From: Cocleimonas sp.
GTDB lineage: Bacteria; Pseudomonadota; Gammaproteobacteria; Thiotrichales; Thiotrichaceae
DNA: 43,414 nt
Reading direction: 5' to 3'
NCBI GenBank assembly: GCA_023146545.1
Contig: JAGLBW010000070.1
Location: 1 to 43,414 of the forward strand
Below, one piece after another: positions 2,425 to 3,102 of this stretch. Every line of letters starts with the position of its first letter. Position 1 is the stretch's first letter. A model generated the notes under the pieces. The model was not told the DNA's origin. It did not search any database and was given only the letters and a program-made list of their open reading frames with translations. Position numbers and translations under genes: made by a program.

Positions 2425-3102
2425 ATGAAACTATTTACTCGATATTTCCAATCTATTTTTATCATTCTATTATTTTCACTCTGCTCTAGTGCTGTCTTTG
2501 CCGCAGAACTCCCGTGGAGCAATAAACGCTACAGTCATTTTTCTGATCAAGAGCCACTCAGTGCTTTGCTATCAACATTAGCATCGTCTCAATCGACTCA
2601 AATTTCAGTGAGCAAACGCATTAAAGATATTGTTAGCGTACATTTTAAAGAACGAACGACCCGATCCATTTTTGATGAGTTAGTTAAAACACATGGCTTA
2701 ATTTGGTATTACGATGGTGGCGTACTTTATGTTTCTAAAAAGGATGAAATACAAACAGGTTCAGTCAGCCTTAAATATAAAACCAGCAAAGAATTTTCTC
2801 AATCATTGCGTCAAATGGGTATTTTAGACAATCACTTTTATTGGGTGGAATCTGAACAGGATAATGCGGTTTATTTTAAAGGGCCTGAACGATTTGTGAG
2901 TACAGTATTGAAAATGGTTAAAGTGATTGATAAGCGCCCCAACCGAGCGCGGATTTATAAATGGACGGATAAAGATGGTATTCCAAGTTTTACCTCTAAA
3001 ATGCCGAAACACTATAAAAATAGAAAGCTACGGGTTGTTGATATTGATAGCAACCTATCCCTTGTGGGTGATTCGAGTGAAATGACACGTTGGGATCAAT
3101 AA
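2425..3102 (+). CDS. T3SS secretin (SctC/YscC) N-terminal domain only, fused to a DUF4124-like C-terminal motif; secreted
   Basis: Signal peptide ends at VFA-AE. AELPWSN...GLIWYYDGGVLYVSKKDE...VYFKGPERFV is collinear with the YscC N-terminus (ELDWLP...NLVWYYDGNVLYIFKNSE...VYVSGPPRYL). The C-terminal RIYKWTDKDGIPSFTSKMP matches the DUF4124 signature. A GAAGGA RBS precedes the start. The ORF stops at 3102 and sctD starts at 3230, so there is no room for a pore domain. Confidence 0.7.
   Translation: MKLFTRYFQSIFIILLFSLCSSAVFAAELPWSNKRYSHFSDQEPLSALLSTLASSQSTQISVSKRIKDIVSVHFKERTTRSIFDELVKTHGLIWYYDGGVLYVSKKDEIQTGSVSLKYKTSKEFSQSLRQMGILDNHFYWVESEQDNAVYFKGPERFVSTVLKMVKVIDKRPNRARIYKWTDKDGIPSFTSKMPKHYKNRKLRVVDIDSNLSLVGDSSEMTRWDQ

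Follow-up and report, generated by a model that had tools for sequence, protein, structure and literature searches.

A pore-less secretin N-terminal protein with a DUF4124-type tail heads a Ysc-type type III secretion operon in Thiotrichaceae

How can a system for type III secretion (T3SS) work when its secretin gene ends before the pore? We address this question for a 43,414-bp contig (38% G+C) of Cocleimonas sp. (assembly GCA_023146545.1, contig JAGLBW010000070.1), the whole of which is referred to here as the window. On it, a gene that we call sctC' stands at the head of the operon sctD-E-F-G-(I)-J-K-L, in the gene order of the Yersinia virC operon. Its product, SctC', is a secretin N-terminus of 225 amino acids (aa) made of a predicted signal peptide, the domains N0 and N1 and a DUF4124-type tail, and has no pore. 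An earlier note on this DNA had read this architecture from the letters alone, and Pfam, BLASTP and an AlphaFold2 model agree with it. The short pore-less form is conserved in sulfur-oxidising Thiotrichaceae and some other Gammaproteobacteria, offering a natural experiment on what an N0-N1 ring does alone and on whether and how a T3SS passes the outer membrane.

Architecture and conservation of SctC'

The sctC' open reading frame (ORF) runs from an ATG at position 2425 to a stop codon at 3100-3102. The hydrophobic N-terminal stretch of the protein, helical at residues 2-20 in the AlphaFold2 model, is aligned in 37/37 family members and is followed by small residues before the invariant W31; A-x-A-type sites are kept family-wide. 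From this we infer a Sec signal peptide and export of SctC'. The match to Secretin_N (N1) scores 33.2 bits against a Pfam cut-off of 28.2, and the match to T3S_SPI-1_N0 (PF21304) lies just under its own cut-off (25.8 bits against 27). Among the 37 aligned family members, all match PF21304 at E≤0.01 and 29 match PF03958 (N1). The Pfam check on secretin N-domains proposed in the earlier note speaks for its reading, the N-domain matches being significant. A match to the Secretin pore domain (PF00263) was sought in SctC' with Pfam and not found.

The residue-level alignment to the N-terminus of YscC, also described in that note, is recovered by BLASTP, which pairs YscC residues 8-171 with SctC' residues 7-171 at 27% identity and with a single gap, across the LIWYYDGGVLYVSKKDE / LVWYYDGNVLYIFKNSE stretch. 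Among the sequences in the PDB, the N0-N1 part of InvG is a phmmer match to SctC' (E=6e-10). An AlphaFold2 model of SctC' built on the 37-sequence family alignment has a predicted local distance difference test score (pLDDT) of 82 overall and above 90 over N0-N1. Superposed on known N0-N1 structures, it gives template modelling (TM) scores of 0.90 for MxiD (root-mean-square deviation 1.8 Å), 0.86 for InvG and 0.83 for EscC. Since sctD starts at 3230, 127 nt past the sctC' stop codon, no N3 or secretin domain is encoded at the locus, as had been proposed. SctC' thus shares with the canonical SctC proteins (YscC, InvG, MxiD and EscC) the N0 and N1 domains and the first position in the sctC-D-E-F-G-...-L operon. 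It is shorter (225 aa against 607 aa), has neither N3 nor an S domain nor the secretin double beta-barrel, and has gained DUF4124.

On the tail, the earlier note claimed too much for this copy. What it called a textbook DUF4124 signature is a weak match in this single copy (PF13511, residues 175-195; 14.6 bits where the cut-off is 22, E=0.04), whereas 34 of the 37 family members match PF13511 at E≤0.01, the best at 1e-8. The DUF4124 call, weak for the window's copy, is solid for the family as judged from these profile matches. Residues W180, D182, G185 and P194 are invariant across the family alignment. In all short members a hydrophobic residue comes before Y(K/R)W; then follow a D..G turn, the pattern ..(H/N)(F/Y)S, a proline, a short linker and a third hydrophobic strand. 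In the predicted models the RIYKWTDKDGIPSFTSKMP core and the third strand, RVVDID, form a three-stranded beta-meander, which is also the fold of the tail modelled in isolation (pLDDT 74). We regard the invariant DUF4124 module as a novelty of this lineage that must have a partner.

Is the short form a gene in its own right, or what is left of a longer one? A homologue search with SctC' returned 107 clusters at 90% identity, all of 200-264 aa; their named sources are Cocleimonas, Leucothrix, Thiothrix, Thiolinea, Thiofilum and unclassified Thiotrichaceae. The family alignment retains 25 invariant columns, tail motif included, at a pairwise identity of ~40%, and the short form appears to be under strong purifying selection. 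We also assembled a set of loci from a scan of GTDB species genomes (59 loci), earlier look-ups and the window. It contains 57 short sctC-like ORFs, one of them an RhcC1-like gene in Methylobacterium. The remaining 56 short orthologues come from the window, Thiothrix, Thiolinea, Thiofilum, Cocleimonas, Leucothrix and one Competibacteraceae metagenome-assembled genome (MAG). Every one carries the tail motif and has sctD next to it, at -4 to +127 nt, so that the fusion which the earlier note proposed to seek in relatives is found throughout. A further orthologue (L051) has the tail motif too; its listed length of 368 aa probably stems from the choice of a start codon upstream.

A full-length sctC, which the earlier note had named as the mark of a truncation remnant, occurs at 0/56 of the orthologous loci. 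A recently truncated sctC in a T3SS on its way to being lost could be suspected from the window, which has the sctC'-sctL operon only, and from a few MAG loci with fragmented T3SS genes (L024, L042). The latter are long-read or low-coverage MAGs, in which frameshift errors are presumably common. The short form, however, is fixed in at least 50 species-level genomes of several genera with its neighbours intact, has invariant residues throughout, the tail included, and has no full-length orthologue in the clade. We consider decay very improbable: sctC' is conserved, and is neither a pseudogene nor an artefact nor a recent truncation.

An exhaustive HMMER profile search over 1.84 billion representative proteins separated the short form from the full-length secretins. 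The top ranks go to about 45 short representatives (160-284 aa), whose matches extend through the tail to profile position ~200. The full-length secretins (550-720 aa) set in at about E=1e-34, and their matches are confined to positions ~8-175 (N0-N1). The named divergent short members belong to Competibacteraceae and Aquisalimonadaceae. In a neighbour-joining tree of N0-N1, the DUF4124-type short proteins form one group with a transfer bootstrap of 0.82. The exact-split bootstrap of this clade is 2/200, a low value because a few divergent members wander (the Competibacteraceae proteins P0135 and P0136 are unstable), and on that value we do not claim strict monophyly. A single origin of the short DUF4124 form has moderate support from the tree, and further support from the shared fusion at the same position.

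Two further loci are noted here. A sctC' on contig CAYOYW010000048.1 (L044) is found in a MAG labelled 'Candidatus Saccharibacteria'; its content is Thiothrix-like (sctQ, TGL, sctC', sctD), and the label is probably a binning error. Another truncated secretin, P0160 (257 aa; positions 1659-2432 of a 4.2-kb contig, L072), consists of N0, N1 and a bacterial SH3_3 domain and falls outside the DUF4124 clade in the N0-N1 tree.

Cluster layouts and the secretin stub of rhizobia

The genes that accompany sctC' follow the Ysc-type order sctC-D-E-F-G-(H/I)-J-K-L and include homologues of YscE, YscG and YscK, with F and I assigned by position or resemblance only. The mapped clusters come in two layouts. 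The compact one reads sctQ-R-S-T-U-NfeD-sctV-N-O-sctC'-D-E-F-G-x-J-K-L, with unrelated genes on both flanks. The Thiothrix layout has sctK-L, then the divergent sctO-N-V-NfeD-U-T-S-R-Q, sometimes a transglutaminase-like gene, and then sctC'-D-E-F-G-x-J. Its flank upstream of sctK was reached by a profile search with a Thiothrix-type SctK. In the complete genome of T. litoralis, the genes 5' of sctK encode a cyclic-nucleotide (cNMP)-binding protein, BolA, a LOG-family protein, a cation-efflux protein and glutamine synthetases; 3' of sctJ this layout continues with lipid A acyltransferase, molybdopterin and ferrochelatase genes. The Thiothrix cluster, ~14 kb long, is fully bounded by housekeeping genes. 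It points to a minimal T3SS of 18-19 genes in Thiothrix-type bacteria, which abound in wastewater and sulfidic habitats.

We searched these clusters for the missing pore with a secretin-domain profile built iteratively from GspD, the type II secretion system (T2SS) secretin encoded in the window. The profile detected all its controls: every outgroup full-length SctC, YscC (4e-42) and, at 3e-19, the Tad-like RhcC2. In no Thiotrichaceae locus (~50 loci) did it find a secretin domain within ±10 kb of sctC', even at E≤1. A pore gene inside the T3SS cluster was rejected as a candidate, the ORFs of all ~70 loci yielding only outgroup full-length SctCs and the GspD of the window. This excludes a pore within the T3SS clusters, as distinct from the remainder of the genomes.

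Several genes of these clusters are worth recording in their own right. Between sctU and sctV, nearly all Thiotrichaceae loci encode a conserved protein of 175-201 aa that carries an NfeD C-terminal (partner-binding) domain (L001 3940-4467, minus strand; L030 4418-5023), a gene that is non-canonical for a T3SS. In the compact cluster L030, a 99-aa ORF that by eye resembles STAS/anti-sigma-antagonist proteins lies between the NfeD gene and sctV (5023-5621, plus strand). Many Thiothrix-type clusters have a TGL gene (protein-glutamine gamma-glutamyltransferase, PF20085) divergent from sctC' (L001 8507-9763, minus strand; L069 and L070 19584-20696). The cNMP-binding-domain protein of Thiothrix genomes lies directly 5' of sctK in the same orientation (L070 9408-9908, plus strand; L071 8470-8964) and is a possible regulator of the T3SS cluster. 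In the Competibacteraceae MAG (L065 14031-15647, plus strand), a 538-aa DUF1521 protein is encoded between the rod-like gene and sctJ. We take DUF1521 to be the autocleavage domain of the rhizobial type III effector NopE1 and regard the protein as a candidate substrate for secretion.

A pore-less secretin N-terminus has a precedent. In rhizobia the secretin is split over two genes, rhcC1 (nolW) and rhcC2: RhcC1/NolW, kept among the core genes, has homology to T3SS secretins in their N-terminal part only, and RhcC2 is a Tad CpaC-like protein with BON and Secretin domains (Abby and Rocha 2012, PMC3459982; Tampakaki 2014, PMC3973906). What Abby and Rocha (2012) proposed is a partial homologous replacement, with RhcC1 retained as the presumed linker between SctD and RhcC2. 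They regarded secretin acquisition as a key step in injectisome evolution, and RhcC1/RhcC2 has so far been the only documented partial secretin replacement (PMC3459982). The earlier note's remark that such an architecture had not been described therefore fails for the pore-less N-terminus as such, and stands for the DUF4124 fusion and the lineage. We found no description in the literature of an N0-N1 stub fused to DUF4124 or of a pore-less stub in this lineage, and a literature search on T3SSs in Thiothrix, Thiotrichales, Leucothrix, Cocleimonas and Competibacter found nothing relevant.

SctC' might then be an orthologue of RhcC1/NolW, stemming from the same ancestral truncation and spread by horizontal transfer of an Rhc-family T3SS. 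The two proteins are indeed alike: NolW has ~230 aa, a signal peptide and the same type of position among core T3SS genes. Its alignment to SctC' covers residues 8-161 (26% identity), and like SctC' it ends ~60 aa past N1, at the same boundary. The systems around them are not. In the Thiotrichaceae system the core proteins consistently resemble those of Ysc more than those of Rhc (SctV 48.7% against 41.3%, SctT 37% against 25%, SctS 52% against 38%, SctL 29% against 22%), and the C-D-E-F-G-x-J-K-L order and the YscE, YscG and YscK homologues are Ysc-like. In the N0-N1 tree NolW falls elsewhere, among full-length secretins, and adjoins the DUF4124 clade in 1/200 bootstrap replicates. Its tail lacks the DUF4124 motif. 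Finally, the rhizobial cluster contains its own pore, RhcC2, which in the Sinorhizobium locus lies 13 kb from nolW beside a CpaD-like lipoprotein gene, whereas the Thiotrichaceae sctC' clusters hold no secretin and no RhcC2-like gene, which the profile would detect. Orthology with NolW is scarcely credible on these grounds. Because of the Ysc-like core proteins, gene order and accessory genes, the position of NolW in the tree and its lack of DUF4124, the SctC' family looks like a second, independently evolved secretin stub. It would be the second case of a partial secretin, found in another T3SS family and fixed in many genera; the module appended to it is a different one, and no replacement pore is linked to it.

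The Rhc-III system of Rhizobium etli comes close to this arrangement, with rhcC1 present and rhcC2 absent from the cluster (PMC3973906). It differs in belonging to the Rhc family, and its functionality is uncertain. To our knowledge, no DUF4124 is known in that system.

Possible partners of the tail

What might such a stub do? We propose that SctC' is what remains of a Ysc-type T3SS secretin, namely the half that docks on the inner rings. Exported to the periplasm, its N0-N1 part would oligomerise into a ring on the periplasmic ring of SctD, touching the SctD C-terminal domain as InvG touches PrgH and MxiD touches MxiG. Solved injectisomes (PDB 6rwk, 6pem) show such a contact between the N0-N1 ring of the secretin and the C-terminal part of SctD. 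Such a ring is suggested here because both contact partners, N0-N1 and the Y4YQ_C domain of SctD, are conserved. We had considered Y4YQ_C as a marker of truncated-secretin systems and rejected it; YscD and all canonical SctDs tested have it as well. The pore half (N3 and the secretin domain) would have been lost in an ancestor of this gammaproteobacterial lineage, with a DUF4124 mini-domain and a variable tail in its place. The tail would serve to couple the basal body to a further component of the envelope, the likeliest partner being an outer-membrane channel encoded outside the T3SS cluster and the second candidate peptidoglycan.

We tentatively favour an outer-membrane channel encoded elsewhere, following the logic of RhcC1, at somewhat less than an even chance. 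We do so because the needle chaperones and the F-position and rod-like proteins are kept, because one cluster includes the DUF1521 gene, and because TfpC acts in a secretin-based machine. The retained SctE, SctG, F-position and rod-like proteins, together with the NopE-like DUF1521 gene, suggest a system that is still meant for export past the inner membrane. TfpC, a type IV pilus factor of Neisseria gonorrhoeae, is a periplasmic DUF4124 protein (PMC7593972). Like SctC' it has DUF4124 followed by a low-complexity/proline-rich extension, and it acts in a secretin-based envelope machine (PMC7593972); unlike SctC', it lacks secretin N-domains and has DUF4124 at its N-terminus. We treat this parallel as a lead only. 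The only functional link of DUF4124 that we found is this one, to type IV pili through TfpC. A search of the fetched DNA for DUF4124-like modules that might hint at a partner returned none besides SctC'. SctC' gives the widespread DUF4124 a second setting, open to genetics, within a machine that spans the envelope.

A different reading dispenses with the channel; this one and the recruited pore, both suggested in the earlier note, are the two leading readings. The N0-N1 ring would then be the outermost T3SS-specific part of a truly secretin-less T3SS, its tail anchored to peptidoglycan or to the inner face of the outer membrane, and substrates would be delivered to the periplasm only or passed to a separate machine. 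The fully bounded clusters, with no pore gene and no recognisable gatekeeper, ruler, tip or translocon, are consistent with this, as are the hosts, which by their record titles are mostly free-living filamentous sulfur oxidisers. The independent truncated secretin P0160 carries SH3_3 after N1, and bacterial SH3_3-type domains often bind the cell wall. Peptidoglycan surrounds the N-terminal part of secretin channels, where peptidoglycan-binding modules are common (AMIN, SPOR, LysM, the OutB extension; PMC9239104); DUF4124, however, is not documented as one of them.

A working example of such a system may be the 'needleless' T3SS* of Myxococcus xanthus, whose cluster, like those of SctC', has neither a secretin pore nor a translocon. 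It lacks the secretin, the needle (SctF) and the translocon and yet is functional, and it is thought to work with a separate secretin-containing machine, the Kil Tad-like system (PMC12075869; PMC3459982). The SctC' systems differ from it in keeping the N0-N1 stub, the SctE and SctG chaperones, the F-position ORF and the rod-like protein. This retention speaks against a secretin-less T3SS, as does the NopE-like DUF1521 gene, a hint at extracellular substrates in one cluster. We consider a secretin-less system rather unlikely, though next in rank to the channel.

A bolder variant of the channel reading is that the N0-N1-DUF4124 ring plugs the basal body into the secretin of another machine, for example PilQ of type IV pili or GspD of the T2SS, with DUF4124 as a general docking module for secretin machines. 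This is a long shot. If true, an entire Ysc-like T3SS lineage, at home in free-living Gammaproteobacteria that oxidise sulfur, would have no dedicated secretin, and the presence of TfpC in Neisseria pili would also be explained.

Several observations weigh against an inner-ring-docking SctC' coupled to a channel in an exporting system. Ring formation and docking on SctD, which we consider most likely, are read from homology. The protein in the F position (window 4949-5236) has no needle-family match in Pfam and little likeness to YscF. The export-apparatus operon (sctQRSTU, V, N and O) is not on the window contig, which carries the sctC'-sctL operon only. In the bounded Thiothrix clusters we found no Pfam families of the gatekeeper (SctW), ruler (SctP), tip, translocon or pilotin. 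Such proteins are fast-evolving and may have their genes elsewhere, and their lack fits a system that does not inject through an outer membrane at least as well. We know of no biochemical function of DUF4124. A profile search for it among solved structures gave only spurious repeat-protein matches, and Foldseek with the isolated tail model returned no match below E=1.

The sctC' operon and the rest of the window

The features of sctC' and of the operon behind it are collected in Table 1.

Table 1. Coordinates of sctC', of the parts of its product and of the downstream operon genes in the window
Feature	Position	Strand	Remarks
Shine-Dalgarno-like GAAGGA	2413..2418	+	6 nt 5' of the ATG; read from the sequence
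sctC' coding sequence, pore-less T3SS secretin N-terminal protein (N0-N1-DUF4124), 225 aa	2425..3102	+	Pfam, BLASTP, phmmer, AlphaFold2 model
Predicted Sec signal peptide, residues 1-26 (...SSAVFA/AELPW)	2425..2502	+	Putative cleavage site at the slash
N0 domain, PF21304 match, residues 42-103	2548..2733	+	Pfam and fold; structural N0 from about residue 34
N1 domain, PF03958 Secretin_N, residues 113-173	2761..2943	+	Pfam and fold
DUF4124-type tail module, residues 175-215	2947..3069	+	Pfam (residues 175-195), family alignment, models
sctD, inner-membrane ring	3230..4519	+	Cytoplasmic FHA-like domain, three BON-like periplasmic domains, C-terminal Y4YQ_C (also in YscD)
sctE, YscE-type needle co-chaperone	4516..4722	+	PF08988, E=1.7e-6
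F-position Ala/Gln-rich small protein, putative divergent needle subunit	4949..5236	+	Position only
sctG-like TPR chaperone	5357..5746	+	TPR_19, E=4.9e-7; yscG position
197-aa protein, C-terminus resembling the inner rod SctI	5808..6401	+	Resemblance to YscI by eye only
sctJ, inner-membrane ring lipoprotein	6552..7175	+	PF01514, E=4e-27
sctK, sorting platform	7438..8187	+	PF06578, E=2.9e-17
sctL, stator	8184..8789	+	PF02108 and PF06635

Two of these genes recur in the relatives. The small ORF between sctE and sctG is kept as an Ala/Gln/Thr-rich product of 57-95 aa (in the window, at L001 12366-12539 and in the gap at L030 12166-12875); it could be a needle subunit that has diverged strongly, or a protein of another kind. 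The 197-aa rod-like protein has a counterpart in all clusters and no Pfam match. Around sctC', a sigma-70 promoter scan gave 5 sites against 5.4 expected, and the promoter and terminator scan there was no better than shuffled sequence.

The 2.4 kb 5' of sctC' seem free of ORFs because a UvrD-like helicase gene (>658 aa; window 1-1976, minus strand) runs off the start of the contig. Directly past sctL, on the opposite strand, a 185-aa ORF (window 8834-9391) has a weak match, below the cut-off, to an AP2 DNA-binding domain (E=0.0027).

The remaining genes of the window are housekeeping genes (mfd, minCDE, moaC and others) and an unrelated T2SS (gspD, gspE and gspF) ~33 kb away. The T2SS secretin GspD (window 36367-39141, plus strand) is unusually long at 924 aa, with N0, five Secretin_N stretches and the pore domain, and is followed by gspE (39157-40710) and gspF (40751-41968). 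It is the sole pore-forming secretin on the contig. Between a gene for a Lon N-terminal-domain protein and gspD lies an insertion sequence (IS)-type integrase gene (window 34781-35782, plus strand), whose product has an rve core domain and a helix-turn-helix.

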